Below are positions 13,474-62,863 of a DNA stretch of 64,000 bases, piece after piece. The position numbers and the translations under genes are program-made. Position 1 is the stretch's first letter, and each line of letters starts with the position of its first letter. This DNA is from a virus. A model generated the notes under the pieces. That model ran no database searches. It was not told where the DNA came from and saw only the letters and a program-made list of their open reading frames with translations. Location: positions 7,083-71,082 of the IMG/VR virus record IMGVR_UViG_3300031344_000007; one strand, written 5' to 3'.

Positions 13474-13490
13474 CATTAAGAAAGGAAATA

Positions 13491-14050: not shown

Positions 14051-14117
14051 AATTTTTAATTATTAATTTGCAAAGATAATAAAAAAATAGATTAAATTTT
14101 ATAAAAAATATAAATAG

Positions 14118-14188
14118 TTCCCTTATTAGGATTTGAACCTAAATATTCATTTTCAGAGAATGAAATGTTACCATTACATCATAAGGAA
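14118..14188 (-). tRNA. tRNA-Gln(CTG)
   Basis: U1:A72 acceptor TTCCTTA/TAAGGGA, anticodon arm TCATT-CT CTG AA-AATGA. Confidence 0.88.
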
Positions 14189-14194
14189 ATATTG

Positions 14195-14267
14195 TTGCCA
14201 TGTACAGATTCGAACTGTAACTAATTGATTCAAAGTCAATTGTGCTAATCCATTACACAACAAGGCA
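14195..14267 (-). tRNA. tRNA-Gln(TTG)
   Basis: Anticodon arm ATTGA-CT TTG AA-TCAAT, T arm TACAG-TTCGAAT-CTGTA. Confidence 0.9.
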
Positions 14268-14273
14268 ATATTG

Positions 14274-14345
14274 GGGGTGATGAGGTATTTGAAACCTCCC
14301 CGACAGAATCACAATCTGGCATGCTACCGCTACACCAATCATCCC
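14274..14345 (-). tRNA. tRNA-His(GTG)
   Basis: Encoded G-1 and C73, loop TT GTG AT. Confidence 0.88.
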
Positions 14346-14352
14346 ATATAAA

Positions 14353-15201: not shown

Positions 15202-15345
15202 AATATTTAAATTTATTATAAATACTGTGGATGTCGAAAAAATACGAGTTGAACTATAGGTATTTCAAAGAACTTTGCTAAATTTTTAGTTAACCTTTTG
15301 GTTATGCAGTGATTACTACGTGCAAGTAATTTAACATCAATCACT

Positions 15346-15430
15346 TCGGGGTGACACGGTTCGAACGTGCGAGGGATTTCTCCACCTGCTTCCAAGGCAG
15401 GACTGCTACCAACTACAGACCTACACCCCG
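15346..15430 (-). tRNA. tRNA-Pro(TGG) with a long variable arm
   Basis: Acceptor CGGGGTG/CACCCCG, A73, anticodon arm CCTGC-CT TGG AA-GCAGG, variable arm GGA-GAAA-TCC. Confidence 0.85.
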
Positions 15431-15441
15431 ATATATATAAT

Positions 15442-33365: not shown

Positions 33366-35423
33366 ATGTCTGAAGATATTGACAAATTAAAAGATAAAGA
33401 AGAAGAACAATTCCCTGACCATATTCCAGTAGTTCCATTTGATGTTCAAAAGGAAAGAGAAAAAGAAGAACAAAGAAAATTAGCAAAAGAACTTCGAAAA
33501 AAATCTAAGAATACTGAACCTATTATTATTACAAAATCTGGTGTAATAAAAAAAGCAAGCGAATTAAATTATACTGAACAAGAAGATGAGATTATTCGTT
33601 GCGCATCAAACCCAATCTATTTTATTGAAACATATTTAACAATTTTTGACCAAACTCAAGGTAAAGCTGGTCTTATTGTTCCTTTCAAATTATTTGAATT
33701 TCAAAAAGAATTAATTCAATCATATTTGGAAAATCGTTTTGTTGTTGCAAACAAATATAGACAAGCAGGAGTTACAACCACCACGTCAGCATATATAGCA
33801 TGGTATGTTATGTTTAATCGTAATAGACAAGTTGCAATTGTTGCTGATAAACTTGAAACTGCTCGTGATGAAATAATGAGTGATGTTGTTGATTTTATTG
33901 AAAATTGTCCTGTATGGCTTAGACCAAAAACTGGAAGAAATACAGAAAAGAACTTAAAAGATACGCAAAAATTAAAGTACTACGATAATGATTCAAAATT
34001 AGGTGCTTTTGCATCAAAGAGTTTACGTGGTATGACACCAACGCTCTTGTTTTGGGATGAAACTGCATGGGCGGAAAAGGGTGATAAATTCTGGACTTCA
34101 GCACAACCAACATTACAAACTGGTGGTGCTGCTATTATGGTTAGCACTCCATCTGGGATGGATTCTGTATTTTATAAACATTTTAGTGAAGCAAGAAAAG
34201 GAAAAAATAATTTTAAAGCAATTGAATTATGGTGGTTTAATGACCCTCGTTATAATAAAGAATTGGTTTGGCTTAAAAATAAAGGTAAAACCACTGAAAT
34301 TAAATTAATTGATGAAAATTGGACTAATGAAAAAAGAATTCAATTAATGGATGATGGCTGGGAAGCATCTTCACCTTGGTTTGAAGAACAGATTCGTAAC
34401 GCAAATGGCGATATGAAACGTATTGCGCAAGAACTTATGTGCAATTTTTTGGGGTCTGGTGATAATTTTATTGCAGAAGAATATTTAAAAAGAATTGAAG
34501 AAAATGAAAAACAGCCTCCTATTCGTCAAGAATATATAGATGGTAATATGTGGATTTGGAAAGACCCTGAACCCGGAGAAGATTATATTATGGCATTAGA
34601 TGCCTCTCCGGGTCATGGGGAAGATAATTCAACACTCAATATGCTTAAAACTATAGAAATTATTGAAGAAAAAATAATAAAAAAAGGTGATAAAATAAAA
34701 AAAGTTAAAACAAAAAGACATAAAGTTGAACAAGTTGCTGAGTATTATGGCAAAGTAACACCACAAATGTTATCAGAAATAGCATATCAATATGGTAAAA
34801 GATATAATAATGCATATTGTATTGTTGATATTACTGGCGGTTATGGTGTGCAGAGTGTTGAAAAATTATTAGAATTTGGGTATGGCAATGAACATATTCA
34901 TTATGCGGAAGTAACACATAAACCAAGTAGAGATAGATTACAAGGATATATAAAAAAAGGTCAAAAAATAATGTCTGATGGTAGTATAATAAATGTTGAT
35001 TTAATTCCCGGATTTTTTATTGGTAATAATCGTGCATCAGTTATTCAGGAAATGCAAAGAGCAATACATTTGGAAGATGTTATCATTAGGTCGATTAGAT
35101 TATTAGAAGAATTAAAAACATTTGTAACTATTGCAGGAAATAGAGTTGCCGACCATAAACGTACATTTCATGATGACTCAATTATGGGATTAAGTATTGG
35201 TTTATATGTGCTCAATTTTGATATGGCTAGATATAAACAAAGTAAAGGAATGACTGAACATATGCTTAATGCTATAATTACTAATAATGATATTAATGAA
35301 ATGAAGGGAAAAATGGATATTAAGAATAGACCAATGATTTCACCTAATAGCGTATCACCATTAAATCCCTATGGGGCAAATGCATGGTTATTTAATGGTA
35401 TTAAAGATAAAAAGAAAACATAG
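33366..35423 (+). CDS. terL: Terminase large subunit (T4 gp17-like)
   Basis: Walker A KYRQAGVTT, Walker B LLFWDE, STPSG, nuclease MALDAS..EDNS and HDDSIM. Confidence 0.92.
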   Translation: MSEDIDKLKDKEEEQFPDHIPVVPFDVQKEREKEEQRKLAKELRKKSKNTEPIIITKSGVIKKASELNYTEQEDEIIRCASNPIYFIETYLTIFDQTQGKAGLIVPFKLFEFQKELIQSYLENRFVVANKYRQAGVTTTTSAYIAWYVMFNRNRQVAIVADKLETARDEIMSDVVDFIENCPVWLRPKTGRNTEKNLKDTQKLKYYDNDSKLGAFASKSLRGMTPTLLFWDETAWAEKGDKFWTSAQPTLQTGGAAIMVSTPSGMDSVFYKHFSEARKGKNNFKAIELWWFNDPRYNKELVWLKNKGKTTEIKLIDENWTNEKRIQLMDDGWEASSPWFEEQIRNANGDMKRIAQELMCNFLGSGDNFIAEEYLKRIEENEKQPPIRQEYIDGNMWIWKDPEPGEDYIMALDASPGHGEDNSTLNMLKTIEIIEEKIIKKGDKIKKVKTKRHKVEQVAEYYGKVTPQMLSEIAYQYGKRYNNAYCIVDITGGYGVQSVEKLLEFGYGNEHIHYAEVTHKPSRDRLQGYIKKGQKIMSDGSIINVDLIPGFFIGNNRASVIQEMQRAIHLEDVIIRSIRLLEELKTFVTIAGNRVADHKRTFHDDSIMGLSIGLYVLNFDMARYKQSKGMTEHMLNAIITNNDINEMKGKMDIKNRPMISPNSVSPLNPYGANAWLFNGIKDKKKT

Positions 35424-35492: not shown

Positions 35493-38400
35493 ATGGCTGA
35501 ACCAGCAAAAAATAAAGGAACTGTATATCAAGAACTCAATAAAATGATGAATCTTGATGGGTTTGGTTTTCAAGATAATCAACCTACAAGTGTAATGCAA
35601 CAAGCATCCGCACCACCATCAGAAAAATCTAAAATAATTATTAAGGGTAATAGTCCTGAAGAAATTCATAAAAAGGGTTTAGAGTTAGAACAGAAAAGAG
35701 AACTTCAAAATAAATTTTTTAGAACAACTGATAGGGGTTTTCAAAAAGCACTTCAATATGAAGCAGCAAGATTACCTGCATACATGGATTATGAAGGGAT
35801 GGAATATTATCCTATTATCAGCAGTGCGTTAGATTTATTCATGGAAGAAGCAACTACAATTGGTTTCAATGGTAAAATGTTAAATATATATTCCAATAAA
35901 GAAAGAATAAAAATGTTGTTAGAGGAATTTTTTTATGATATAGTAAATGTTAATGTTAATTTACCATTCTGGGTAAGAAATACACCAATTAAATATGATA
36001 GTATTATCCCATTATTGAGTGGTGAAGAAATCACAATAAAAGAATTATCAGAAAGATTAAAGAAAAACCCAAAGGATGAAATTTGGACTTATTCAATTCA
36101 AGATAAAACAAATAAAATAGTTGCTGGTAAAATAGTTTGGTGTGATTTAACTAGAAAAGATAGTGATATATTAAAAATTACTTTCGATGATGGTACATAT
36201 GTTGAAACAACACCAGACCATGAATATATGCTTAGAAATGGTTCATATTTAAGAGCAGATAAATTAAATGCTGGTTCTAGTTTAATGCCATTTTATACAT
36301 TAACAAGTAATGAGGCTAATTATATTTCTGGATACGAAAAAGTTTATAATCCAGCATCAAATCATCATGTATTTACCCATAGAATTGTTGCACAAGAATG
36401 TGTTATTAATTTAGATGAAGAGAATAGAATAAAAGAAGATTTTGTTACACACCATGTTGATTTTAATAAAAAGAATAATAGTCCTTCAAATTTATTAAGA
36501 ATGACAAATGCTGAACATGGTAATTATCATGCTAAACTAGGTAATGTGGGAAAAATTATATTACAAAGAGAAGATGTAAGAAAAAATAGAATGTTAGGTA
36601 TTGATAAATATTTACGTTCAGAAAAAAGAAAAAAAAGATTATCAAAAGAAATGTTAGGAATTTACCCAACTTATTTTGATAAATATAATAACAGTCCATT
36701 ACATGATGAACATAATATTATTCGTAAGAATAAAATGACAGAATTGTGGTTAGATGAAAATTATCAGAATAAAGTAAAAGATAAGATGCAATTAAAATTA
36801 AATGATAATTGTTTAAAACATATAGTTAATATTTTGGGTCGTAGTAAGACATATATTGGATGTGCTAATTTAGGAAAAGAATTAATGAAAGATGCTCAAT
36901 TCATGCTATTATTTAAATCATCTAATCCTAATATTAGAAAAAATTTAAATAAATCATTAAGTAGTACTACATTATATAAACTTATATTTAGAAAAACGCA
37001 AATGAAATATTGTGATTTTGTGTCAAGTATTAATCCTAAGATAATTAATGAAACAAATTTTAAAAGAGCAAATGCTATTTCAAATAAATCTAATATAAAA
37101 GCATCATCAATATTAAATCATAAAGTATTATCGATTGAAAAAATTGATGAAAAATGCGATGTTTATTGTATGGAAGTTGTTGGCAAAAACAATGAGCAAG
37201 ATAGACATAATTTTCCTGTTTGTAGTAAAAATGAAAACGGTGAATATACCAGAAATGGTGTCTTTCTTTCGAATTGTAAATATGGCGATAATTTCGTCCT
37301 ATTATATGGTGAACGTAAAAAAGGTATTACTCATGTGAAACAATTAGTTAATTACGAAATTGAAAGATTTGAAAGAATTCAAAATGGTAAACCATTGGTT
37401 AAATTCAAAGAAAGAATGACTGGTGACGAATTTAATGTTTTTGAAATTGCTCATTTTCGACTTTTAGGTGATGATAAATATTTACCTTATGGAAGTTCTA
37501 TTTTAAATAAAGTTCGCAGAGTTTTTAGACAACTTGTAATGGCAGAAGATGCCATGCTTACATATCGTATTATTCGTGCTGGTGAAAAGAAAGTATTTAA
37601 AATTGATGTTGGAAATATTGATGAGGATGATATTGAAGAATATATTTATAAAGTTGCTACAAAATTTAAAAAATCAGCACAAGTAAATCCAAATGATGGT
37701 CAGATTGATTATCGTTTTAATATACTTGGTAATGATGAAGATTATTTTATTCCAGTTAGAAATGCAAATACTGAAACTGGTATTGATACATTACCCGGTG
37801 CAACTAACCTAGATGCTATACAAGATATTGAGTATCTGAGAGATAACCTTTTCATCGGACTTGGGATTCCAAAACCTTTTTTATCATTTCAAGATGCTGC
37901 AGGTGCAGGTAAAAATATGGCACAATATGATATTAGATTTTCAAAAAAAATAAATCGTATTCAACAAGCCATAATTCAAGAATTGAATAAAATGGCAATG
38001 GTTCATTTATATTTATTAGGATATACTGGCGAAGATTTAAGTAGTTTTACACTTACGCTCACAAATCCAAGTACTCAACAAGAATTATTAAAGTCTGAAT
38101 TAATGCGTGATAAAGCACAAACATATACTGAATTAACACGTGCTGAAGGTGGTATTGCAGCTATGTCACATACTACTGCAAAACGTATGATTTTCAATAT
38201 GAGTGATAAAGCTATTGTTGATGATTTGAAACAACAAAAAATGGAAAAAGTTGTTATGCAAGAACTTCAAGATTCTCCAGTTACAATTAAAAAATCTGGT
38301 TTGTTTACTGATATTGATAAACGTTTTGGTTCACCAGAAGAAATGCCAATATCTGGTGCAACTGCTGGTGGTGCTCTTCCTTCTGCTGGTGGTGGAACTG

Positions 38401-38816
38401 GTGCTCCACCTGCTGGTGGTGCTCTTCCTTCTGCTGGTGGTGGAACTGGTGCTCCACCTGCTGGTGGTGCTCTTCCTTCTGCTGGTGGTATAAATGGTGG
38501 TGGAGCAACAGGTGGTGCTGAAACAATGATGGAAAATAAAAAAAATAAATTAAGTGAAGAAGATTTTAATAAACATATTGAAAAATTAGTATATGGAAGT
38601 AGTAAGGAAACTGAAATTAAAAAAGAAACTGAACATACACAAATTATTCAAGAAAATAATGAAATTAATGATTATTTGAACAACAAAGCATTGAATATGG
38701 TTAACGAAATTACTAATTTATTAGAAAATCATGAAAGTATAAATACAGAACAAAAAAATATTGAAATACAAGATACTGAAATTATGGATATTGAAAACAT
38801 TGATTTAAACGAATAA
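35493..38816 (+). CDS. Portal protein (T4 gp20-like) with intein
   Basis: DYEGME.YPIISSALD, CKYGD, EDAMLTYRIIRA.EKKVFKIDVGN, EDYFIPVR, DTLPG. Confidence 0.92.
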   Translation: MAEPAKNKGTVYQELNKMMNLDGFGFQDNQPTSVMQQASAPPSEKSKIIIKGNSPEEIHKKGLELEQKRELQNKFFRTTDRGFQKALQYEAARLPAYMDYEGMEYYPIISSALDLFMEEATTIGFNGKMLNIYSNKERIKMLLEEFFYDIVNVNVNLPFWVRNTPIKYDSIIPLLSGEEITIKELSERLKKNPKDEIWTYSIQDKTNKIVAGKIVWCDLTRKDSDILKITFDDGTYVETTPDHEYMLRNGSYLRADKLNAGSSLMPFYTLTSNEANYISGYEKVYNPASNHHVFTHRIVAQECVINLDEENRIKEDFVTHHVDFNKKNNSPSNLLRMTNAEHGNYHAKLGNVGKIILQREDVRKNRMLGIDKYLRSEKRKKRLSKEMLGIYPTYFDKYNNSPLHDEHNIIRKNKMTELWLDENYQNKVKDKMQLKLNDNCLKHIVNILGRSKTYIGCANLGKELMKDAQFMLLFKSSNPNIRKNLNKSLSSTTLYKLIFRKTQMKYCDFVSSINPKIINETNFKRANAISNKSNIKASSILNHKVLSIEKIDEKCDVYCMEVVGKNNEQDRHNFPVCSKNENGEYTRNGVFLSNCKYGDNFVLLYGERKKGITHVKQLVNYEIERFERIQNGKPLVKFKERMTGDEFNVFEIAHFRLLGDDKYLPYGSSILNKVRRVFRQLVMAEDAMLTYRIIRAGEKKVFKIDVGNIDEDDIEEYIYKVATKFKKSAQVNPNDGQIDYRFNILGNDEDYFIPVRNANTETGIDTLPGATNLDAIQDIEYLRDNLFIGLGIPKPFLSFQDAAGAGKNMAQYDIRFSKKINRIQQAIIQELNKMAMVHLYLLGYTGEDLSSFTLTLTNPSTQQELLKSELMRDKAQTYTELTRAEGGIAAMSHTTAKRMIFNMSDKAIVDDLKQQKMEKVVMQELQDSPVTIKKSGLFTDIDKRFGSPEEMPISGATAGGALPSAGGGTGAPPAGGALPSAGGGTGAPPAGGALPSAGGINGGGATGGAETMMENKKNKLSEEDFNKHIEKLVYGSSKETEIKKETEHTQIIQENNEINDYLNNKALNMVNEITNLLENHESINTEQKNIEIQDTEIMDIENIDLNE
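35985..37274 (+). mobile_element. Intein with HNH endonuclease, Pro1 (class-3-like)
   Basis: WVRNT|PIKYDSIIPLLSG...TTPDH...HHVDFNKKNN...VYCMEV...VFLSN|CKYGD. Confidence 0.85.
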
Positions 38817-51263: not shown

Positions 51264-52907
51264 ATGGAAAAATACAATATTCCTATTGAGATTAGAACTA
51301 CAATATATAATAAATATAAATTAGGAGTTCGAATGAAAAAAATTGGTGAGGAATATGGATATTCGTTTACCGTGGTTCAAAAAGTAATTAATTCATTTAA
51401 TTATGAAAATCAAATTAAAAGTAATTATCCTCAGAAAGAAGGATATTATATAGTTGCTATTTGTAATCAAACATTGAAAGAAATAAAGGATTATAGAAAT
51501 GAATCGGGTGCTATTGCTGAACATGTCTTTAAATTATATCCAGAGGAAGCAAAAAACAGTAAATTTATTCGCAAATCAAAAGAATATGAAACTGGAAAAT
51601 TTTGGTATGATAAATATTTTACTTTTGATTATAGGAAATTTAAAGAAGTTAAAAATTGTCATTATTGTGAATGGACAACTGAAGATATAGAAAATTTATC
51701 TGGTGCATATAAAAAACATTTAATGATAAACCATAATTTATCTCCAGAAAGACACATAGAACAAGTACCTGCAGACCAATTTTATTTTAAAAAAAAATTA
51801 CCTCTAAAAGATGGGGTTGTTTGTGCGATTTGTGGTAAAAAATTACGTATATTAAATCATAAACATTTAATGCGTAAACATAATATTTCATTATGGGAAT
51901 ATAAAATACAATATGGTACTGATAATATGGTTTCACCATCAACTAAAATCAAACTAAGCGATTCATGGAGTATAAATTTAAAAAATCAGGGATTTAAAAA
52001 ATCTTCGAGTTATGAAACTGATATACTATCAATTTTAAATAAAAAATCATTAGTTTCTGGTGATAGAACTGTATTAAATGGTCTTGAAATAGATATTTAT
52101 GATACTGAATTAAAAATTGGTTTTGAAATTAATGGCATTTATTATCATTCAGAAAACAAAGGAAGAAAAGATAAATATTATCATCTAAATAAACAAGAAC
52201 TTGCAAATAAAAGTGGGGTTGAATTAATACATATTTTTGAAGATGAAATATATTATAAAAAAGAAATTGTTATTAATAAAATGAAACATGCATTAGGTAT
52301 TAATGATAATGAAAAATTATATGCAAAAAATTGTGAAGTAAAAGTAATTGATTCGATAATTGCAAATACATTTTATAATGATAATCATATTCAAGGTTAT
52401 TCTCCATCATTAATTGATTTAGGTCTTTATTCTGAAGATATTTTAGTTGGGGCAATGTCATTTGACAATAAACGATATATGAATAAAGAATTAATTCATA
52501 ATTCAAATATTTATGAATTAACTAGATTCACCACATCAATTAAATATATTGTAGTTGGTGGTGGTGGTAAATTATTGAATTATTTTATTACCAAATATAA
52601 ACCAATAAGAATTATTACTTTTGCTGATAGGCGATGGACAATCAATAGTAACGATAACTTTTACACTAAATTGAGATTTAAATTAGTTAAAACATTAAAA
52701 CCTGATTATATGTATGTTAATGGAAAAATTGATAGATATAGAAGATTACATAAATTTGGTTTTGGTAAAAACAGTATTAAGAAAAGATTTCCTGAAATAT
52801 ATGATGAATCTAAAACAGAGTGGGAAATGATGCAAGAATTAGGTTATGATAGAATTTGGGATTGTGGAAAATTTAAATATGAATTAATGTTAAATATTAA
52901 AGTTTAA
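51264..52907 (+). CDS. Hef-like homing endonuclease
   Basis: LEIDIY..FEINGIYYHS, LIHIFEDE, ELTRF, ITFADRRW, RIWDCG. Confidence 0.75.
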   Translation: MEKYNIPIEIRTTIYNKYKLGVRMKKIGEEYGYSFTVVQKVINSFNYENQIKSNYPQKEGYYIVAICNQTLKEIKDYRNESGAIAEHVFKLYPEEAKNSKFIRKSKEYETGKFWYDKYFTFDYRKFKEVKNCHYCEWTTEDIENLSGAYKKHLMINHNLSPERHIEQVPADQFYFKKKLPLKDGVVCAICGKKLRILNHKHLMRKHNISLWEYKIQYGTDNMVSPSTKIKLSDSWSINLKNQGFKKSSSYETDILSILNKKSLVSGDRTVLNGLEIDIYDTELKIGFEINGIYYHSENKGRKDKYYHLNKQELANKSGVELIHIFEDEIYYKKEIVINKMKHALGINDNEKLYAKNCEVKVIDSIIANTFYNDNHIQGYSPSLIDLGLYSEDILVGAMSFDNKRYMNKELIHNSNIYELTRFTTSIKYIVVGGGGKLLNYFITKYKPIRIITFADRRWTINSNDNFYTKLRFKLVKTLKPDYMYVNGKIDRYRRLHKFGFGKNSIKKRFPEIYDESKTEWEMMQELGYDRIWDCGKFKYELMLNIKV

Positions 52908-53867: not shown

Positions 53868-54152
53868 TTAATCTTCTTTAATTTCAATTACTTTAATTAA
53901 TGTAAAACCTTCTGCAATTTCTACATATGCATCAATTCTTTTTTTCATTGTTTCATACGTTCTAAGCAAAGTATTTTGAATAGTTTCTACATTAGTTTTC
54001 ATTGGACATTTATCTTCAGACCAAATTTTCCATTCGAGATTATGTGGATTTGGTTTATATTCACCATAAAAAAATAATGATTCTTCTTTAGGATTAAATT
54101 CAACTTTAATCCTTTGATTTTCTTTTCCTTCAATTTTTACTTTCCATTCCAT
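53868..54152 (-). CDS. Hypothetical protein
   Basis: 94-aa ORF. Confidence 0.6.
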   Translation of the reverse strand: MEWKVKIEGKENQRIKVEFNPKEESLFFYGEYKPNPHNLEWKIWSEDKCPMKTNVETIQNTLLRTYETMKKRIDAYVEIAEGFTLIKVIEIKED

Positions 54153-54176
54153 GTTTTTAAGTTTTTAAAATGAATC

Positions 54177-54248
54177 TTTAAAATATTATCATATTTATTA
54201 TTCATAATCAAATAGTTATATGCATTATCGTATATATAATAGTTAGGC
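54177..54248 (+). repeat. attI-like anchor, copy 1
   Basis: 43-bp repeat (one mismatch to 58451-58493), with GTTAGGC starting 23 nt after its end. Confidence 0.6.
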
Positions 54249-54260
54249 ACAATAAAAAAG

Positions 54261-54491
54261 CTACTCATTTTTCTTTGCCTTGTTTAATATATTATCAAAT
54301 ATTTCCTTCCATTTAGCTTTATCCTCTTTCGATTGTTTTGGAGCTTTTTTGCACTTATGCTTTGAATACTCCCATCTTTCAAAATCATCACCATATACAG
54401 GAGCTTGCCAAGGCATCCGTATTTTCATTATTGGTTTAGCAATTATTTTACCACACCAAGGGCATTTCGGAGTTTCTCTATATACTGCCAT
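54261..54491 (-). CDS. Cassette ORF, small Zn-ribbon protein (MAVYRETPKCPWCG)
   Basis: Bounded by GTTAGGC...GCCTAAC. Confidence 0.6.
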   Translation of the reverse strand: MAVYRETPKCPWCGKIIAKPIMKIRMPWQAPVYGDDFERWEYSKHKCKKAPKQSKEDKAKWKEIFDNILNKAKKNE

Positions 54492-54508
54492 TATTAATAG
54501 TTTACTGT

Positions 54509-54638
54509 GCCTAACACATGCTATAAAAAATAGCGGTTTTAGTGGTTTGCACAAGGTTTATACTTCTATTTAATTTCATTGCATTTTGATAATTTATATC
54601 TTCGATTTCCGCTACTTTTCATAGCATCAACGTTAGCC
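54509..54638 (+). mobile_element. attC-like site 1
   Basis: GCCTAAC-ACATG-CTATAAAAAATAGCGG...CCGCTACTTTTCATAG-CATCAAC-GTTAGCC, 130 bp. Confidence 0.75.
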
Positions 54639-54644
54639 GTCAGT

Positions 54645-54905
54645 TTAAAGTCGGCACGATGAACAACCTTCGTACAGTTGTTCAAATCCCATTTCTTTTA
54701 ATTTTTCTTCGAATATTTTAGTACATTTATTACACATGCAAATCTCTTCCCCATTTACACCTAATGTAACTTCGCCGTTTCCAACACTTTCTCTATTGAA
54801 TACTTTTTTATATTCAAGAAAACACATAGCAGGGTCATTGTAAGATGGTTCATTAAATTCACTTCCGCAGCAATTGCATTTAAAAACTTTTCTATAATTA
54901 CTCAT
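54645..54905 (-). CDS. Cassette ORF, Cys-rich protein
   Basis: Bounded by GTTAGCC...GGCTAAC. Confidence 0.6.
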   Translation of the reverse strand: MSNYRKVFKCNCCGSEFNEPSYNDPAMCFLEYKKVFNRESVGNGEVTLGVNGEEICMCNKCTKIFEEKLKEMGFEQLYEGCSSCRL

Positions 54906-54946
54906 AATTATTTGTTTTAAAATTAGTTACTAAATAAAAACCGAAC

Positions 54947-55077
54947 GGCTAACACAACCTATAACCAATAAAGGTTTTAGTGGGTAATTGCAACGTTGTG
55001 GCTCGCATCAGTTTCGGTATATTTTGACAGGCACGAAGCCCGTAATCCTTTACTGGTCATAGCTTCGACCGTTATGT
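54947..55077 (+). mobile_element. attC-like site 2
   Basis: GGCTAAC-ACAAC-CTATAACCAATAAAGG...CCTTTACTGGTCATAG-CTTCGACC-GTTATGT, 131 bp. Confidence 0.75.
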
Positions 55078-55081
55078 GGCA

Positions 55082-55279
55082 TTAAACCCGAATGCTCACA
55101 ATTATATCACCCTTATTTAGTTGCATAATTGTTTTTGCAGCATTTGACAATCCATTATCATTGGTATTTTCAACCCACACTTCATAATCTTCACCATATT
55201 CATCTACTTCTGGCAAGTCTTTAACCAATTCTTTCAACTCTTTAATTGTAATTCCTGTTTTATTTACTAATGCTTTCAT
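55082..55279 (-). CDS. Cassette ORF, hypothetical (MKALVNKTGITIKELKE)
   Basis: Bounded by GTTATGT...ACATAAC. Confidence 0.6.
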   Translation of the reverse strand: MKALVNKTGITIKELKELVKDLPEVDEYGEDYEVWVENTNDNGLSNAAKTIMQLNKGDIIVSIRV

Positions 55280-55361
55280 AATAATTAACGCCACATAACA
55301 ACGTGTATAAAACATTGCCTTTTGTGGTCTTTTTTAAGTTTATACCAAATATTTAAGTAAG

Positions 55362-57932
55362 TTATTCTTCGTCTGTCCAATTTCTATCAAAAATTAATTC
55401 TAATTTGGCTCTTGTAATTGCAACATAATATAGGTTCATTTCTTGAATATATTGCCAAGGTTTCACATTTTGCATTGGTAATAAATCAGGTCTAATAATA
55501 AATACTCGATTTGCTTCTAATCCTTTAATTTTATGTACAGTACTTAGCACTATGCCTTGAATTTCATCAGTAAAAATAGTTTTAATTTTATATTTTAAAT
55601 CCATAACACTATCAGAAAGTCTGGCTAAAAACAATAATGTCATTACTTTATCTTCAAGTGCAGTATATCCGCTATGTTCATTGGGGTTTAGAATACCCTC
55701 TGATTTTAAATCATGTCTAAATGTTACTAATTCTGCTTCCCAGAATTTAATTAATTTATCGATATTATTAATTTTACCAATTAATTCAATAAGATGTACG
55801 CCAATATCAGAACCTTTAATAATTGCTTTTCTATGTTGTGTAAGAAATTCGAAAAATAGTTTTACTAATGGCATTGTAGTTCTACATAGTACAAAATCAC
55901 CACTCTGTGCTTCACTTAATACGCCACCATCTCTTACCATACCATCAGGAGCATCATCTAATGCTTTAATATCTGGAACAATTTCTTGTGCTTTTTTTAT
56001 TACATTTTTTGAACATCTAAACGATGTTGTTAATGGCAATACTTTTGTATTTGGAAATTTTTCAAACCATTCAAAAGATTTATCATCTGCTGCATTGAAA
56101 CCATAGACTCCTTGAAAAAAATCTCCGAAAGAGAATAATCTGCCAGTATATTTTTTGCTGATTTTATCTCTTTTTATTATTTTTTCAATAATTCGAATTT
56201 GACAACGATTTAAATCTTGACAATTATGCGCAATTATTCCATAATTTTCTGCATTTGTTATTCTTAGATGTTCAGTTTTAATTTTACTTATTGAAGTAAC
56301 AATAAAATTATGATTGTCTTCAACATTCATATCATAAACTTTTTCGGATTTATAAAAACTAAATTCTTTTGTTACAACCATGCAACCAATATTATTATCT
56401 TTTTCTAATTTCCAATTATTTTTATTAAAAAACCCTCTATCTTCTGGACATAGTTTATATTCCATACTTTTATGAATATATGAAGATAATAATTTTGATA
56501 TTTTTTTTGTGTTTTCTTTATTAAATGAAAGCCAATAATAATTTCTTTTTGTTGTTGAACTTTTACCGATTTTAACTGATGATATAATATTCCAATTTTC
56601 ATATATTTTATTGGATAATAATTGTGATAATTCAAAACTTTTAGCTGTTGAATATAATCTTGATTCTAAATAATTTTTTGAAATATTACCATCATCCATC
56701 CATGAAATCGCTAATGATTGTAATGATATATTATTAATTATTTCATTATCATTCATATTAAAATAAAAACTCTTTGTTGTAAAAGTGTGTGCAATTTTTT
56801 TCGAATAACCATTATTTTTTATTGATTTTAATTTTCCATTAAAAAAATTTGATTTCCATTGAATGTATTCTTTTTGATTATTACCATGTATTATTCTTAA
56901 TCTAAAAATATTATTTGAAATTTTTGTTATGCATCCATCACCTAATTTAGAACCAATAATTATATTTTTTTGTGTATTATTTAATATTTGATGATATGGT
57001 TGTTTATTATAATTAGATAAAATAATATCATTAATTTTTAATTCATCTAATCTCTTCCAACCATCTAATGTTAGAAATCTATGATTTATTGTTGATTTTA
57101 GCTTTCTTTTTCCATTTAAAATAACACAATAAACATCTTTAATTCCATTACACCAAATCTTATTAACTTTTTTTTCTTCAAATAATTTAGTACTTTCATT
57201 ATATGTCGTAACTATTGGTAATTCACCAGTTTTTTCATATTTTTCACATAATGTTTTTATTTTAAATTTACCTTTTGTTGTTGAAATATATGTTTGAGCA
57301 GGTAAACATTCATCAACAAATACATAATCTTGAGGAAACATCCAAATACTATTATCAATTGCTGGTAAATATATCATGTCAGTATAATCGAAACTATGTC
57401 TATCTGTTGTCATTTCATCTAAAACCTTAAGAACTCTTTTAATATCTTTAGGTTTGGTTAAAGGAATATCATATTTTTCACTAATATATGGAATAAATTC
57501 AGGTTTTATTGTCAATGTTAATCTACATAAGTTTGCAAGTTTCTTTATATTATTTAAATATAATCCTATTTTTTCTTCATCATTAAATTCTTCATGTAAA
57601 TCCCAACTTTTTGACTTTTTTAATATAATTTTATCAGCCTTAAATTCATCAAATTGTATTTTATCACCATATTTTCTTTTAATTGCTGCAGTACCAAGTC
57701 CATAAGTGGTATAACAACGAATGTATTCAGGTAATTTTGTTTTAAGTTCTTCTTGAATGTGCTTATTAAATGCTAAAAACATTATTGATTTATCTTTAGA
57801 TAATAATTTAGCACATTCAATTGCAGTATATGTTTTACCAGTACCTGCGAGTGCTTTAATTAACAAATTTTCTGGTCTTTTTTTAGTAAAAAGAAATATT
57901 CTTTCTTGTTCAGGTGTTGGTTTATGATTCAT
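55362..57932 (-). CDS. UvrD/Rep-like SF1 helicase with intein
   Basis: ALAGTGKT, LAFNK, VDE|CQD, GDFFQGVYGF, SFRC, STVHKIKGLE, YVAITRAK. Confidence 0.9.
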   Translation of the reverse strand: MNHKPTPEQERIFLFTKKRPENLLIKALAGTGKTYTAIECAKLLSKDKSIMFLAFNKHIQEELKTKLPEYIRCYTTYGLGTAAIKRKYGDKIQFDEFKADKIILKKSKSWDLHEEFNDEEKIGLYLNNIKKLANLCRLTLTIKPEFIPYISEKYDIPLTKPKDIKRVLKVLDEMTTDRHSFDYTDMIYLPAIDNSIWMFPQDYVFVDECLPAQTYISTTKGKFKIKTLCEKYEKTGELPIVTTYNESTKLFEEKKVNKIWCNGIKDVYCVILNGKRKLKSTINHRFLTLDGWKRLDELKINDIILSNYNKQPYHQILNNTQKNIIIGSKLGDGCITKISNNIFRLRIIHGNNQKEYIQWKSNFFNGKLKSIKNNGYSKKIAHTFTTKSFYFNMNDNEIINNISLQSLAISWMDDGNISKNYLESRLYSTAKSFELSQLLSNKIYENWNIISSVKIGKSSTTKRNYYWLSFNKENTKKISKLLSSYIHKSMEYKLCPEDRGFFNKNNWKLEKDNNIGCMVVTKEFSFYKSEKVYDMNVEDNHNFIVTSISKIKTEHLRITNAENYGIIAHNCQDLNRCQIRIIEKIIKRDKISKKYTGRLFSFGDFFQGVYGFNAADDKSFEWFEKFPNTKVLPLTTSFRCSKNVIKKAQEIVPDIKALDDAPDGMVRDGGVLSEAQSGDFVLCRTTMPLVKLFFEFLTQHRKAIIKGSDIGVHLIELIGKINNIDKLIKFWEAELVTFRHDLKSEGILNPNEHSGYTALEDKVMTLLFLARLSDSVMDLKYKIKTIFTDEIQGIVLSTVHKIKGLEANRVFIIRPDLLPMQNVKPWQYIQEMNLYYVAITRAKLELIFDRNWTDEE
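56223..57308 (-). mobile_element. Intein with LAGLIDADG-type endonuclease, inserted in Walker B
   Basis: VDE|CLPAQT...STINHRF...GSKLGDG...WMDDG...VYDMNV...IIAHN|CQD. Confidence 0.9.
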
Positions 57933-58395
57933 TATCTATTTCTTTCCAATTTTCATTTGTTGTTCCATCTTGTAGTTCATATATTACATTATCTTCAAGT
58001 ACAAGGACTCTTAATCCTTCCTGTCTTGTATATATTTTGTCATTATAATGAATATATTTTTCGTTTAATTCATTTCTTAATTTAATGGTTTCAACCATTA
58101 AATGATATCTTTTCTTTAAAATAAATTCAAAATCACCAAGACTTTTCATATTATTCCATAATATTTCAGCCATTTCATCACCAACTTGTCCAAGTAAATT
58201 AATACTTGTTTCAATTACTTTAGCTGCTTCTTTATCAAATTCTGCACTTCTACGACCATATACCTCTTGAAGTATATATCGTGCTAATTCAATGGCAAAG
58301 AACTTATCTTCGGGTTTATGTTCGTAATCTTGTGGTAAATCAATACAAGGTCTTCCTTGTTCATTTAATTTGACATCATATTCAATTTTATACAT
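57922..58395 (-). CDS. Hypothetical protein
   Basis: 157-aa ORF overlapping the helicase start. Confidence 0.6.
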   Translation of the reverse strand: MYKIEYDVKLNEQGRPCIDLPQDYEHKPEDKFFAIELARYILQEVYGRRSAEFDKEAAKVIETSINLLGQVGDEMAEILWNNMKSLGDFEFILKKRYHLMVETIKLRNELNEKYIHYNDKIYTRQEGLRVLVLEDNVIYELQDGTTNENWKEIDNES

Positions 58396-58450
58396 TAGTT
58401 TTATGTATTTTAATATTTCTATAAAACATTTTTAGCTTTTTAAAACAAAT

Positions 58451-58522
58451 TTTAAAATATTATCATATTTATTATTCACAATCAAATAGTTATGTATATG
58501 ATTTTATATATTATAGTTAGCA
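58451..58522 (+). repeat. attI-like anchor, copy 2
   Basis: Same 43-bp repeat, with GTTAGCA again starting 23 nt after its end. Confidence 0.6.
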
Positions 58523-58726
58523 ACAATGCGTGTAGCCAATTACATATTTTTCGTTTAATTCTTCAATATAATCATCAACACTTTTAGGTTTCTTCCCTGT
58601 TCCATCATATTTATCCCATTTATTATTCCATGCTCTTACATCTTCCAATAAGTTACGTAATGCACTGTGGCTAACACCAAATATAGGTAATTTGCCATTC
58701 TCTTTTTTAACATTTTCTGTACTCAT
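58517..58726 (-). CDS. Cassette ORF starting inside attC-like site 3
   Basis: MSTENVKKENGKLPIFGVSHSA...; stop TAA inside the GTTAG core. Confidence 0.6.
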   Translation of the reverse strand: MSTENVKKENGKLPIFGVSHSALRNLLEDVRAWNNKWDKYDGTGKKPKSVDDYIEELNEKYVIGYTHCC

Positions 58727-58797
58727 AATTCAGTTATTTTTAATTAAGTTATTACTATTTTTTATGGGCAAACTACCCATATTTGTAAACGTTATAA
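58669..58797 (+). mobile_element. attC-like site 3
   Basis: GGCTAAC-ACCAA-ATATAGGTAATTTGCC...GGCAAACTACCCATATTTG-TAAAC-GTTATAA, 129 bp. Confidence 0.75.
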
Positions 58798-58841
58798 GCA
58801 AGGCGAAGACGCTCAGAATGAACGTCCTGCCAAACTTTAAA

Positions 58842-59099
58842 TTAGCATTCTCCAATACATTCACCTATTGGTGCATCGCATTCTGTTACGTTAAAATGTG
58901 ATTTAAGAACAGTTAAAGCAGCTTGAAAATTGTTTTCGGTTGTATCTTCAACATCTTTGTATTCAGAAGAACTATCTGCATACATAATTGTCCATCCGTT
59001 TTTACCAACTTCAACCCTAATTTTCAATCCTAAATCATCTTTAAATGTTTTGGAAACTTCGATTTCACTTGACGGCATCATGCCCATAAATCTTTTCAT
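58842..59099 (-). CDS. Hypothetical (cassette-derived) protein
   Basis: 85-aa ORF next to attC-like site 3. Confidence 0.6.
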   Translation of the reverse strand: MKRFMGMMPSSEIEVSKTFKDDLGLKIRVEVGKNGWTIMYADSSSEYKDVEDTTENNFQAALTVLKSHFNVTECDAPIGECIGEC

Positions 59100-59151
59100 G
59101 CTTTTTAATTTAATTTGTTAATATATAATTGTTTAATAATTTCAATTTATA

Positions 59152-59454
59152 TTATAAAGCATTACGAATACGTTGAATATTCAAATCATCTAAAATGAAA
59201 TGTTCCATTTCATCATCAATAATTCCTAAATTTCCAAAGAAACAATATTGAAGTACTGACTTTAATTCACTCCGTCTAATTGAATAGTTTTTTGCGTAAT
59301 CAATATACATTTCATTCTTTGTATCACGATAAAGTTTTTCATATTTTATAATATCTACAGTATGTTCACCAATTCGTTTTAAAATATTGTTTCTAACGTC
59401 AGATACACCCAATTTGGGGTTTTGTGTTTCAATTTTATTTTTATCTGTTTTCAT
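59152..59454 (-). CDS. Cassette-derived ORF (MKTDKNKIETQNPKLGVSDVRNN)
   Basis: Shares its start block with 59475-59684; TTCTAAC at 59391. Confidence 0.6.
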   Translation of the reverse strand: MKTDKNKIETQNPKLGVSDVRNNILKRIGEHTVDIIKYEKLYRDTKNEMYIDYAKNYSIRRSELKSVLQYCFFGNLGIIDDEMEHFILDDLNIQRIRNAL

Positions 59455-59474
59455 AATTTCAATTTATATTATAG

Positions 59475-59684
59475 TTAACGAGAATATAGTTGACATTCAT
59501 ACTCGTCTTTTAACATTTGTATTAATCTTGTTTTTGTTATTTTTATGCTAGTATTTTCTTGATGTTTTATAACAACATATATCATATTAATTTGTTTTTC
59601 AGTAAATGGAAATATATTTTCGCTAACAATAGGTATATTTAATTTGGGTTTCCGTGTTTCAATTTTATTTTTATCTGTTTTCAT
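59475..59684 (-). CDS. Cassette-derived ORF (MKTDKNKIETRKPKLNIPIVSEN)
   Basis: Bounded by GTTAACG (59474)...CGCTAAC (59621). Confidence 0.6.
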   Translation of the reverse strand: MKTDKNKIETRKPKLNIPIVSENIFPFTEKQINMIYVVIKHQENTSIKITKTRLIQMLKDEYECQLYSR

Positions 59685-59695
59685 AAATTTATTTT

Positions 59696-59890
59696 TTATT
59701 TATGTGTACTTCTCCAGTGTTCCCTGTCATTCAAATATCCTTCATATAATTGTTCACTTGAAATTTGATGACCCAATTCCCAATAATCTTGTTTCTTTTC
59801 AAGTGATTTAAAAGTTCTAATCCATTCTAATAATTCAATTGCTTCTATTCGCAAAGAATCGCAATTATCTGATATATCTAATTTATTCAT
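59696..59890 (-). CDS. Hypothetical protein
   Basis: 64-aa ORF. Confidence 0.5.
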   Translation of the reverse strand: MNKLDISDNCDSLRIEAIELLEWIRTFKSLEKKQDYWELGHQISSEQLYEGYLNDREHWRSTHK

Positions 59891-61714: not shown

Positions 61715-62863
61715 TTATGTTGAAGAAATTATAGAATTAATTTGATTAGAGATTAGTTTTATATTTTCTTCAATATTTTTTAAAAATTCTTTTTCATTTA
61801 TTCTTATAATATGACAATTATGCATTTCCTTAAGATAATTTTCTTTAATTAAATCACGTTCTTTTTGTCGTTTAGCATTATGATGTTTTTCATCCCATTC
61901 AATACATATATTATATTTCGCAATAAAACCATCAACCCAATATCTTATAAATTTCTTTTCACCACCATTTAATGCATGTTGAATTTCTATCCCTAATTTT
62001 TCTGATAATAAATCTAAATATATTATTGAATTAGGATTATATTTTGGGGCATGTTTTAACCATAATTCGCCATATCTCTCAATCATGGTTGCTGCAATTT
62101 TTTCGGAAACCCTTTTATTTTGTGTAGCATATTCAACACCATATTTTTTCAAATAATAAATTTTCATTTTATTTTTATATTCTTCAGTTTTTGTGTGATG
62201 GTCAACACCATATTTAATTAAACAAGTTTTTTTTGATTTTTTTTTAAATTCATTTGTTGATAAAAACCATTCAGTATTATACTTTTCCAAATTTCTTTTT
62301 TTTGTTTCATTTTTTGATTTTTCTGTTTTATTATATGAATCCATACCATATCTTCTAATATTAGTTTGAATTCTTTTATTATGAAATTCTTTTGTTTTTG
62401 AAAAATGGTCAACACCATATTTTTTTAAATTAGTTTGTTTTGTTTTATTTTTGCATTCATCCGTTTGATTATACCATTTTCCATTTTTATATAATTTATT
62501 TTTTATTTTTTTCTTAATTTCGTTTGATTTTGATGGATTATCTACACCAAATGTATTTAAACAAGTTTGTTTTATTTTATCTTTATGTTGTTCTGATTTA
62601 TTTAAACAATTAATTGAACAATATTTGTGATATCCAATATTATATTTTTTTAAATGTAATATTTTGTTACAAGATATACATTTAGGGTTTTCAAATAAAT
62701 TATTAATGTAATTATATAATAATTCATGCCAACTATTTGAATTAGAGAATTCAATAATTTTATTGTATAGGTCAGGAAAATTATTTTTTATGTGTATTTC
62801 TCTTGTTTTATATCCAGATTTATTATTGGTTTCTAAATATACTTTTAATTCTTCACTTTCCAT
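61715..62863 (-). CDS. Putative homing endonuclease with KYGV repeats and a PD-(D/E)XK-like C-terminus
   Basis: Repeated T.L.KYGVD; YWVDG...IEWDEKHH...RD. Confidence 0.72.
   Translation of the reverse strand: MESEELKVYLETNNKSGYKTREIHIKNNFPDLYNKIIEFSNSNSWHELLYNYINNLFENPKCISCNKILHLKKYNIGYHKYCSINCLNKSEQHKDKIKQTCLNTFGVDNPSKSNEIKKKIKNKLYKNGKWYNQTDECKNKTKQTNLKKYGVDHFSKTKEFHNKRIQTNIRRYGMDSYNKTEKSKNETKKRNLEKYNTEWFLSTNEFKKKSKKTCLIKYGVDHHTKTEEYKNKMKIYYLKKYGVEYATQNKRVSEKIAATMIERYGELWLKHAPKYNPNSIIYLDLLSEKLGIEIQHALNGGEKKFIRYWVDGFIAKYNICIEWDEKHHNAKRQKERDLIKENYLKEMHNCHIIRINEKEFLKNIEENIKLISNQINSIISST

Follow-up and report, generated by a model that had tools for sequence, protein, structure and literature searches.

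The cassette region of the window, i.e., the whole 64-kb (64,000-nucleotide) stretch of phage DNA analysed, is likely to be comprised of three short, recombinase-less arrays of mobile cassettes that belong to an integron-like system of Bacteroidota and their phages. The reading is carried by the structure of the sites and its covariation, a chain of complementary flanks, a hairpin family shared by bacteria and phages, the association with a recombinase, and variable content in relatives. The earlier note had proposed that the phage gains accessory genes through an integron integrase. The cassette reading was supported, but a strict IntI enzyme was not. The arrays are integron-like, not strict integrons, because the linked recombinase is without the IntI-specific insertion.

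Probable cassette arrays in the window

A cassette would run on the minus (coding) strand from AA|C through a 5-nt spacer and a 17-bp stem, which has two G·T wobbles, around a variable loop of ~70 nt. The stem would be followed by a 3-nt spacer, GTT with a cassette-specific extension of ~9 nt (R'), a small ORF, and a second extension (R''), complementary to the first, up to the next AAC.

The five complementary start/end pairs claimed in the earlier note were all found at the places it gave, three perfect and two imperfect. On the plus strand, GTTAGGCACA (54242-54251) and TGTGCCTAAC (54506-54515) are complementary at 10/10 positions, GTTAGCCGT (54632-54640) and ACGGCTAAC (54945-54953) at 9/9, and GTTATGTGGC (55071-55080) and GCCACATAAC (55290-55299) at 10/10. 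The imperfect pairs are GTTAGCAACA (58516-58525) with TGTGGCTAAC (58666-58675), at 9/10, and GTTAACGAGAATATA (59474-59488) with TATATTTTCGCTAAC (59613-59627), at 13/15. The inverse core of both falls within an annotated ORF, and this overlap with coding sequence and the imperfect pairing count against the cassette reading. The three palindromes from TAAC to GTTA were also present, i.e., 54512-54635 (124 nt), 54950-55074 (125 nt), and 58672-58794 (123 nt), but not at the claimed length of 129-131 bp. The 5-nt spacer described after the first core was seen on the minus strand only; those on the plus strand measure 3 nt and 5-6 nt. All five matches of GTTAGSC in the window fall inside the cassette region. 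Array A has two full sites and one half-site, and array B has one full site, all on the minus strand. If they are counted as attC-type, at least two such sites share an orientation here and none has an integrase close by.

One end of array A is marked by repeat D1 copy 1 (54155..54253, minus strand), which is 83% identical to copy 2 and also contains the upstream region of ORF 53868-54152. The junction motif of this array end, TAAC|TATTATATATA (54233-54245), lies in the repeat, and the 9 nt preceding it match R' of hairpin el1 at 8/9 positions. Across eight aligned junctions the motif TAACTAYWATAT was invariant, and at four of the eight, from other viral loci, a recombinase gene follows directly downstream. 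Judged from sequence, D1 copy 1 may be an attI-like boundary with a promoter region. The junction motif alone showed no enrichment on the model strand, i.e., 9 vs 5 occurrences in 612 kb, which counts against the cassette reading.

Cassette A1 (54243..54632, minus strand) is comprised of hairpin el1 (54512-54635, both cores counted), its R' extension, an ORF of 76 aa (54261-54491, minus strand), and the R'' extension ATTGTGCC. The ORF had no match in Pfam or PHROG. Cassette A2 (54633..55071, minus strand) carries hairpin el2 (54950-55074), an ORF of 86 aa (54645-54905), and a flank run of 6. The predicted folds of the circular-junction forms were -23.8 kcal/mol for A1 and -24.4 kcal/mol for A2, vs -19.0 and -18.0 in array context. 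Cassette A3 (55072..55350, minus strand) has an ORF of 66 aa (55082-55282), GCCACATAAC as R'' (55290-55299), and a single hairpin arm, so that the third hairpin of array A is a half-site only (55290-55340). The A3 block 55275-55350 is kept in other phages, with 76-89 nt at 92-95% identity in LR756500.1 and L008.

Between arrays A and B lies a UvrD-like helicase gene with an intein and a LAGLIDADG domain (55362..57932, minus strand), a conserved backbone gene outside the cassettes. Repeat D1 copy 2 (58429..58527, minus strand) is upstream of ORF 57922-58395 and has the junction motif TAAC|TATAATATATA at 58507-58519. Cassette B1 (58517..58791, minus strand) contains hairpin el4 (58672-58794) and an ORF of 69 aa (58517-58726), whose start lies within the hairpin loop; translation continues through the 3' arm (…G-V-S…) and terminates at the TAA in the R'' core. 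Truncated cassette B2 (58792..59135, minus strand) begins with GTTATAAGCA and has an ORF of 85 aa (58842-59099); no matching R'' or hairpin was found within the window. The stretch 59465..59700 (minus strand) has a third junction motif (59465-59477), repeat D2 at 79% identity, and a degenerate unit with the fifth complementary pair (59474-59488/59613-59627), ORF 59475-59684, and a half-hairpin of the 3' arm only.

Conserved hairpin family

A covariance model, R1, was built from the window hairpins. The seeds were picked by a pattern fixing TATG/AGT/ATT/TATA and GTGTTAG, so invariance at those columns is partly imposed. E-values of the three window hairpins were 6e-21 to 2.7e-13, with scores of 125.9 (el1), 88.8 (el2), and 85.9 bits (el4). 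R1 found 157 copies in 64 viral sources (E≤1e-5) and 295 copies in 80 loci of Bacteroidota (E≤1e-4), on a single strand per locus in both. Arrays of 120-170 kb were present in two complete Flavobacteriaceae chromosomes. In a 93-kb viral genome, all 35 R1 matches were at 69-92 kb and none in the first 60 kb. A search of Rfam gave no match to the hairpin.

The site combines AAC/GTT cores with an asymmetric spacer (5/3 nt), a stem of 17 bp, and a variable loop of ~70 nt; its R helix measures 12 bp and has a fixed distal A-T/T·G. In a set of 59 sequences, compensatory changes were found at 10 of the 21 consensus pairs. The share of paired cells was 94.3% in 147 distinct bacterial copies vs 81.8% in shuffles, 14 pairs varied on both sides, and the observed values were reached by 0/500 shuffles. 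Two or three G·T wobbles are fixed per stem, being G·T in 144/147 and 146/147 bacterial copies. Extrahelical, i.e., bulged, bases were not evident in the stem, and the wobbles occupy those places, a departure from canonical integrons that counts against the cassette reading. The strand with the wobbles is the well-folding one, more stable than its complement in 126/150 viral and 144/150 bacterial copies.

Complementary flanks around the ORFs

That a cassette start matches its own inverse core, as the earlier note stated, turned out to be a general rule of these arrays. Between neighbouring sites, the 3' flank of one was complementary to the 5' flank of the next in 55% of the viral pairs (n = 80) and 74% of the bacterial pairs (n = 42), vs 2.3% of 4926 random viral pairs and 3.2% of random bacterial pairs. 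The two flanks of one and the same site were complementary in only 3.5%. Such complementarity bracketing the ORF would be expected if circles were inserted site-specifically, and it is the footprint of integron cassettes.

Hairpins of the el1 type (92-94% identical) with the same R'/R'' bracket five unrelated ORFs. In viral hairpin pairs of ≥85% similarity, the 3' flank was kept in 25/89 and the 5' flank in 2/89, an excess compatible with crossover at the 5' AAC. Neither flank was kept at ≥10/12 in 62/89 of these pairs, which counts against the cassette reading.

Variation among relatives

Array content differed between close relatives when it was compared as the earlier note had suggested. 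In the closest relative (L073), 4.6 kb of unrelated DNA replaces array A, and homology ends again at 58521, the junction in D1 copy 2. Three others (L074-L076) have 41-877 nt in place of 2.1-2.6 kb of the window. The UvrD-like helicase is kept in L073-L076 with both flanks variable. R1 matches in three complete relatives numbered 15, 0, and 1.

Contigs of another sample (run X4) were aligned to the region. One has a different hairpin-like sequence left of 55070 and the same A3 cassette start, with the switch within 2 nt of G|TT. At 59135, a contig departs from the window and continues into sequence with GCTTATAAC, i.e., the missing R'' of B2. A contig is also without 59424-59653. This 230-nt deletion, with 33 shared letters, was the one clear population variant; it is consistent with homologous deletion between D2 repeats and not core sites, and so counts against the cassette reading. 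No recombination event was seen among the assembled contigs aligned to the region.

Orientation of ORFs and a possible RNA role

Of 74 spacers in viral loci, 68 have their ORF on the folding (bottom-type) strand and downstream of its site. In bacterial arrays, the folding strand is antisense to the ORFs in 43/45 spacers, which is the canonical integron orientation. The order of ORF followed by its attC along the top strand of the array was thus found in bacterial arrays but not in phage cassettes.

Another explanation is that the hairpins are RNA-level regulatory modules of early or accessory phage genes, i.e., a promoter/leader stem-loop, an RNase III-type processing site, or a long-range 5'-3' helix enclosing the ORF, shuffled by ordinary homologous recombination between similar hairpins only, like the promoter-stem-loop cassettes of T4-type phages. 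The well-folding viral strand is the mRNA strand and has the hairpin shortly before the ORF, G·U pairing would be allowed at the conserved mismatches, and many copies have a start codon in the loop and a coding 3' arm. The hairpins are also conserved far above the ORFs, and the sole deletion variant seen is homologous. However, an mRNA structure cannot explain the fold in bacteria because the folding strand there is antisense to the ORFs, and with G·T kept in nearly every copy, an mRNA role is not family-wide. The tie of the arrays to a tyrosine recombinase and the circularly permuted layout, with complementarity around the ORF (55-74%) and seldom between the flanks of one site (3.5%), also stand against it. 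As the full explanation it is considered improbable. An additional RNA role in phages may coexist with the cassette role. Being upstream of the ORF on the sense strand, the phage site may also carry expression signals.

Recombinase association

The earlier statement that the window has no integrase held for the whole 71-kb contig, where no PF00589 tyrosine recombinase was found. PF00589 was also absent from the three complete relatives of the phage (325-372 kb), so the likeliest source of the enzyme is probably the host or another phage. No tyrosine recombinase was found in three near-complete hairpin-bearing viral genomes either, and its absence from these and from the complete relatives counts against the cassette reading.

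In the two complete Flavobacteriaceae chromosomes, the best integron-integrase-like match was 1 kb and 7 kb from the 170- and 120-kb arrays. This array-linked enzyme is a Xer-like tyrosine recombinase and its gene is directed towards the array. Of 61 sampled Flavobacteriaceae genomes, 53 had hairpins, 52 had the recombinase, and at least 18 had both ≤11 kb apart. A homologue directly follows the hairpins in 6/63 viral loci, 36-70% identical to the phage copy. The search for a recombinase with the IntI patch, recommended earlier, gave a different enzyme. With the TIGR02249 profile, whose cut-off is 265, the linked recombinase gave 145 and 122+85 bits; it skips profile positions 180-239, i.e., is without the IntI-specific insertion, and misses all NCBIfam cut-offs. 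Its best structural matches were XerA.

The linked enzyme also bears on the possibility that the hairpins are selfish REP-/MITE-like repeats moved by a single-strand HUH transposase (IS200/IS605 TnpA or RAYT-type), with the ORFs as bystanders. The strand specificity of the hairpins and their short conserved core fit this, as do the Y1_Tnp and TnpB genes of G003, the viral genome with the most hairpins. This explanation is nevertheless very unlikely. Y1_Tnp (PF01797) was found in only 2/5 hairpin-bearing viral genomes, not adjacent to the arrays, and was absent from the phage contig and a complete 362-kb genome. The array neighbour is a tyrosine recombinase, not TnpA, and the ends of a MITE would be contiguous, whereas here the complementary ends bracket the ORF and not the hairpin.

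Chance palindromes and inverted repeats in AT-rich DNA, with which a naive window-wide count agrees (GTTA plus 5 nt, followed 100-450 nt later by the reverse complement, 3 vs mean 1.78, not above random expectation and reached by 48/200 random sequences), were rejected as next to impossible by the covariation of hundreds of homologous phage and bacterial copies, the R1 matches of the three window hairpins, and the flank chain. The significance of the window pairs comes from the hairpin family, i.e., stem covariation and flank chain, not from this count.

Comparison with known systems

Sedentary chromosomal integrons, e.g., that of Vibrio cholerae with uniform attC repeats of ~120 nt, are among the closest known systems. 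They share same-strand arrays of small ORFs with imperfect palindromes and AAC...GTT cores in between, first cassette bases complementary to the inverse core of the own site, near-identical sites with unrelated ORFs, one better-folding strand, and a tyrosine recombinase of the Xer/IntI branch at one array end. In contrast to them, the recombinase here is without the IntI insertion and closest to XerA-type enzymes, conserved G·T wobbles stand in place of extrahelical bases, the 12-bp R helix has its fixed distal A-T/T·G, in bacteria the recombinase gene faces the array, and the hosts are Bacteroidota.

PeSL cassettes of T4-type phages are short units of promoter and hairpin, swapped by homologous recombination. 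They are alike in that conserved stem-loop modules flank small accessory ORFs in hyperplastic regions whose content varies between relatives. The sites here differ in being 125 nt with AAC/GTT cores and cassette-specific complementary flanks, and they are also found in bacterial chromosomes, linked to a tyrosine recombinase. The pdif sites of Acinetobacter plasmids are 28-bp double-stranded XerC/XerD sites of alternating orientation. Both systems have discrete gene modules bounded by sites for a Xer-type recombinase acting in trans, but here the sites are folded 125-nt hairpins in one orientation.

Passages of one preprint give Bacteroidota as an example of clades previously found without integrons; one review has Bacteroidota among the phyla with integrons. 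Passages of PMC9892861 (2023) describe 17 CALINs in 10,705 phage genomes, with few standard-model attC sites each. As described there, those CALINs also group attC-type sites and small ORFs without a recombinase, their phages are virulent or uncharacterised, and a DNA methyltransferase is among their cargo, as in viral genome G003 here. On the same description they differ from the present arrays, which have one conserved site family, up to 35 sites per genome, and reversed ORFs. R1 found no copy in two phages of that study, Polaribacter phage P12002L and MW202573.

Proposed mechanism and significance

In the mechanism proposed for the cassettes, the single-stranded minus strand of an excised circle would fold so that an asymmetric internal loop separates the R helix of 12 bp from the long stem, as in the bottom strand of attC. 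The Xer-like tyrosine recombinase that adjoins such arrays in Flavobacteriaceae and some phages would presumably cleave AA|C. The partner for strand exchange would be another folded site or the array-end junction TAAC|TAYWATAT. Since the phage lineage encodes no such recombinase, it would depend on that of its host or a co-infecting phage.

A more specific reading is put forward tentatively. The arrays may be the phage side of a gene-capture system that Bacteroidota possess and that has not been described before; it would work like an integron, but in it a Xer-type recombinase without the IntI insertion acts on folded sites of ~125 nt, and G·T wobbles, not extrahelical bases, mark the strand. 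The phage pool would hold reversed cassettes, with the site before the ORF and probably driving its expression, and the recombinase would be carried by some phages and borrowed by others, including this huge phage.

If this is true, integron-type gene capture extends beyond IntI-bearing bacteria, and a parallel system is near-universal in Flavobacteriaceae (hairpins in 53/61 sampled genomes, arrays of 120-170 kb). It would be a second natural structure-specific recombination system to set beside attC/IntI. With the single covariance model, thousands of unannotated accessory genes of phages and bacteria can be harvested, which may include candidates for defence or counter-defence. The reversed, possibly self-expressed cassettes would be a capture system re-tooled for the virus. 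Phages would swap small accessory genes through host-type sites, which offers a concrete mechanism behind hyperplastic regions in large phages, and also a direct channel of gene exchange between host and phage cassette pools.

The phage fragment and its genes

The window covers 64 kb of an IMG/VR viral contig with a length of 71 kb and an estimated completeness of 22%; the window has a GC content of approximately 25%. Its relatives are viral genomes of 325-372 kb, so the contig is considered a fragment of a huge phage. In the window, genes of the large terminase, portal, head protease, major head protein, and a collagen-like tail fibre were identified. One block on the minus strand (1145-15431) holds 19 genes for tRNAs together with one for tmRNA (9358-9719).

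The tail fibre gene (19333-24156, minus strand, 1607 aa) is part of a stretch with 37-39% GC against approximately 25% elsewhere, and the 15-mer TATACGTGGTATTAG was found in four copies at 21773-23155. The portal protein gene (35493-38816, plus strand) carries an HNH endonuclease-like insertion at residues ~280-430. An ORF of 547 aa adjoining the arrays (51264-52907, plus strand) matched homing or HNH endonuclease PHROGs over its full length. In the array region itself, every gene is on the minus strand. The UvrD-like helicase gene located there (55362-57932, minus strand) contains an intein with a LAGLIDADG endonuclease at residues ~223-547, and its orthologue in the closest relative, L073, is shorter by ~630 nt where the window copy has the intein.

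Hairpins and complementary cores in the window

An earlier note described five mutually complementary core pairs around small ORFs and three palindromes of 129-131 bp running from TAAC to GTTA. All five pairs were found at their positions, three of them perfect (10, 9, and 10 nt) and two imperfect (9/10 and 13/15). The three palindromes were also present on sequence inspection (54512-54635, 54950-55074, and 58672-58794, folding strand minus), but with a length of 123-125 nt. Read on the minus strand, each hairpin starts with TAAC, a G plus 4-nt spacer, and a stem of 17-18 bp with two G·T pairs at constant positions. A variable middle of ~70 nt then leads to the returning arm, and GTTA closes the hairpin after a spacer of 3 nt. 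For the first hairpin, el1, the folding energy was -19.0 kcal/mol (z = -3.4) on the minus and -12.1 kcal/mol on the plus strand. The ORF of cassette B1 runs through the 3' arm of the hairpin, and its stop is the TAA of the next core.

No Rfam family was found for the hairpins, either at gathering thresholds in the whole window or at E<=5 in 54400-55400. The cassette ORFs had no Pfam or PHROGs match except for one weak PHROG of unknown function. When the array region was searched with blastn against GenBank phages, the sole match was a block of 76 nt in an unannotated record of 462 kb. This block of 76-89 nt (55275-55350) consists of R'', i.e., the cassette-specific extension at the AAC core, a single arm of a hairpin, and the region upstream of the ORF at 55082-55282. 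With an identity of 92-95%, it precedes unrelated genes in LR756500.1, an uncultured phage of 462 kb, and in the viral locus L008.

GTTA plus 5 nt with a downstream reverse complement occurred 3 times in the whole window against a mean of 1.78, and 48 of 200 random sequences reached 3. Because this naive count is not above chance in an AT-rich window, the window by itself is insufficient for a cassette claim, and the argument rests on the family-wide tests.

The hairpin family in viruses

A search pattern derived from the three hairpins matched 63 IMG/VR stretches. The alignment of 59 non-identical copies showed 21 consensus pairs, 10 of them with compensatory changes, and a covariance model, R1, was built from the aligned viral copies. 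R1 gave 206 matches in viral sources at E<=1 and 157 matches in 64 sources at E<=1e-5. Nearly all were on the same strand within a locus, with an array spacing of 130 to ~1000 nt. In G003, a viral genome of 93 kb, 35 copies were found, all at 69-92 kb and none in the first 60 kb.

This most hairpin-rich viral genome also has IS200/IS605 TnpA and TnpB genes, inteins, two sigma-70-like genes, and PARP, Macro, NADAR, and Tpt1 genes, and its longest table-11 ORF has just 581 aa (coordinates of these side observations, 34883-35245, 62197-62376, and 64753-65115).

Cassette footprint and varied cargo

The flanks of 142 of the 150 best viral copies were compared, eight being left out for odd cores or a locus-end position, and a complementary run of at least 5 beyond GTT was counted as a match. 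The 3' flank of a site was complementary to the 5' flank of the next site in 55% of 80 pairs, versus 2.3% of 4926 random viral flank pairs. The two flanks of one site matched in 3.5% (n=142), and those of a site and the next but one in 2.1% (n=47). The commonest form is GTTA-N6-G-TT against AA-T-N6-TAAC, i.e., a helix of 12-14 bp with one further fixed G·T. In the 93-kb viral genome, visual inspection suffices to trace the chain of flanks. There the core varies at its fourth base in a covarying manner (GTTG with CAAC), so the invariant core is GTT/AAC alone.

The complementary ends enclose the ORF, not the hairpin. This is the circular permutation that insertion of a circle with one complete site, opened at the core, would be expected to leave. 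When the cassette end was joined in silico before its own hairpin, the fold changed from -19.0 to -23.8 kcal/mol in cassette A1 and from -18.0 to -24.4 kcal/mol in A2, and the R helix was continuous in both.

Hairpin el1 has copies of 92-94% identity in four other viral loci, whose surroundings are otherwise unlike. The five el1-type loci have the hairpin and GTTAGGCACAGT in common, followed by different ORFs with lengths of 76, 60, 92, 71, and at least 39 aa. ATTGTGC(C/A)TAAC comes after each ORF, and the sequence 5' of the hairpin is different in all five. Of 89 pairs of hairpins at least 85% alike in different loci, 25 kept the 3' flank (at least 10/12) and 2 kept the 5' flank, and in most pairs both flanks differ. 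Integron bottom strands are cut on the 5' AAC side. The flank asymmetry fits a crossover on this side, at the 5' AAC, when the folding strand is considered. An all-against-all megablast of the viral loci returned duplicate records and one uninformative pair, with no clean presence/absence case.

Bacterial arrays

The pattern search of bacterial genomes gave at least 120 stretches; among the matches listed, nearly all were from Bacteroidota, mainly Flavobacteriaceae. R1, applied to 80 of these loci (L098-L177), detected 295 copies. Adjacent flanks were complementary in 74% of 42 pairs versus 3.2% of random pairs. The two stem G·T pairs were present in 144/147 and 146/147 distinct bacterial copies, a count that is only partly independent because the search pattern, covering one copy per locus, fixed those letters.

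In a sample of 61 Flavobacteriaceae genomes, hairpins were found in 53 and a recombinase homologue in 52. In at least 18 genomes, hairpin and recombinase were placed on one contig no more than 11 kb apart, as counted among the 150 hairpin matches listed of 288. The copy numbers per genome are lower bounds, with 53-150 candidates scored in each. Lacinutrix neustonica has a main array at ~836-1005 kb, with a recombinase-like match 1 kb from the first hairpin, and a second array of 27 kb. Patiriisocius sp. has a main array at ~1692-1812 kb, with a recombinase-like match of 376 aa 7 kb from the first hairpin. In both genomes, this array-adjoining match ranks first against the integron-integrase model.

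The L. neustonica recombinase gene (G006:C1:834265-835378) has two in-frame stops (TGA, TAA), so the 170-kb array beside it, the largest seen, may be frozen. A short recombinase homologue of 283-284 aa was found 3' of sense-strand hairpins at G007:C1:2446615-2468750 (Patiriisocius) and G008:C13:1971-66367; these phage-type layouts in bacterial chromosomes may indicate prophages.

DNA or RNA fold

The strand with the G·T pairs folded better as DNA in 126/150 viral and 144/150 bacterial copies. This folding strand is the sense strand in viral loci (68/74 spacers) and antisense to the ORFs in bacteria (43/45 spacers). mRNA structure therefore cannot be the common cause of the fold, whereas a single-stranded DNA structure of the kind seen in integrons can be. 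Given the reversed orientation, plain borrowing from the host does not account for the phage cassettes. In these the site is upstream of the ORF, with the start codon inside the loop in many copies, cassette B1 of the window among them. An additional role of the sites in expression is likely in phages.

Recombinase and array-end junction

IS200/IS605 TnpA was rejected as the mobilising enzyme on account of its inconsistent linkage to the hairpins. The array-linked recombinase ranked first with XerA and second with integron integrase in NCBIfam, both under the cut-off. Its alignment to the integron model skips the IntI-specific insertion positions, and the enzyme has an additional N-terminal part of ~110 residues. 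Among solved structures, archaeal XerA was the nearest, and Vibrio IntI4 matched in two pieces. By these comparisons, the enzyme is Xer-like. A phage version of 276 aa, 44% identical, was found directly 3' of the array of viral genome G002, and in 6 of 63 viral loci a homologue adjoins the hairpins directly at the 3' side, encoded on the hairpin strand.

That the window has no integrase, as the earlier note stated, extends to the whole 71-kb contig, where no tyrosine recombinase was found. It was also absent from three complete relatives and from three near-complete hairpin-bearing viral genomes. The recombinase acting on the window arrays would therefore have to be supplied by the host or a co-infecting phage. 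From the site family alone, we infer that the phage host is a member of Bacteroidota.

TAAC|TAYWATAT comes after the last R'' both in the recombinase-bearing viral loci and at all three ends of arrays in the window; it is invariant across eight aligned junctions and may be read as an attI-like junction. The repeat D1 of the window, which carries this motif, resembles the upstream region of the recombinase gene in locus L059. The motif by itself was not enriched (9 versus 5 occurrences in 612 kb), and five of the nine occurrences come after a matching R''. Only its position after the terminal R'' and before recombinase genes speaks for the motif, and this is suggestive.

Turnover among relatives, and population data

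The array content of relatives was not invariant, as four of them differ from the window at the array loci. The closest, L073, has 80-85% nucleotide identity and is homologous up to 54152, where 4.6 kb of unrelated DNA takes the place of array A. Homology resumes through the helicase, without the intein, and is lost at 58521, i.e., the array B junction. In three further relatives, only 41-877 nt take the place of 2.1-2.6 kb of the window. R1 gave one weak match in 21 related loci, and 15, 0, and 1 matches at scattered positions in three complete relatives.

The population data were assembled contigs of four runs, and such data cannot show starts, circles, or rare excision products. Uncovered stretches in sequencing runs X6, X7, and X22, and a metatranscriptome contig with a 47-nt piece on hairpin el2, were set aside as evidence. 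Two neighbouring ORFs at 59381-59700 have their first ~22 codons in common (direct repeat D2, 79%) and diverge at GTTAG. In a contig from a different sample, the 230 nt between the two D2 repeats are missing; this is homologous deletion between direct repeats and does not speak for the cores. In another contig, a hairpin-like sequence unlike that of the window reaches to within 2 nt of the G|TT that opens cassette A3, and a third carries, beyond 59135, the R'' that is absent from the truncated cassette B2. These two variants, each a single contig, weakly point to breakpoints at cassette borders.

Comparison with known systems

The defining parts of an integron are IntI, attI, Pc, and attC. The window arrays are alike in footprint and architecture, whereas the linked recombinase has no IntI hallmark and the cassettes of the phages have the reverse orientation. 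Qi et al. (2023) report 17 integrase-less attC clusters among 10,705 phage genomes, and five phage attC-type sites that were recombined by IntI1 (PMC9892861). R1 found no copy in Polaribacter phage P12002L and MW202573, both from that set, so for these two the published phage CALINs were rejected as the same site family. Cury et al. (2016) do not count as IntI a recombinase that lies close to attC sites but has no IntI domain (PMC4889954). Bacteroidota are listed in a review among the phyla with integrons (PMC8618304), and are named in a 2024 preprint as an example among clades previously without any integrons found (10.1101/2024.07.02.601686). Literature on this site family, or on Flavobacteriaceae arrays with a Xer-like recombinase, was not found in a search of incomplete coverage, and an earlier description is possible.

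The cassette interpretation proposed for the window is supported by the flank chain, the bacterial arrays, and the adjoining recombinase, and is widened by them to a site family found across Bacteroidota. Site-specific cassette recombination is quite probably the mechanism, as judged from the sequences compared. The window is filed as integron-like, recombinase-less cassette arrays of this Bacteroidota-wide family in a huge phage.
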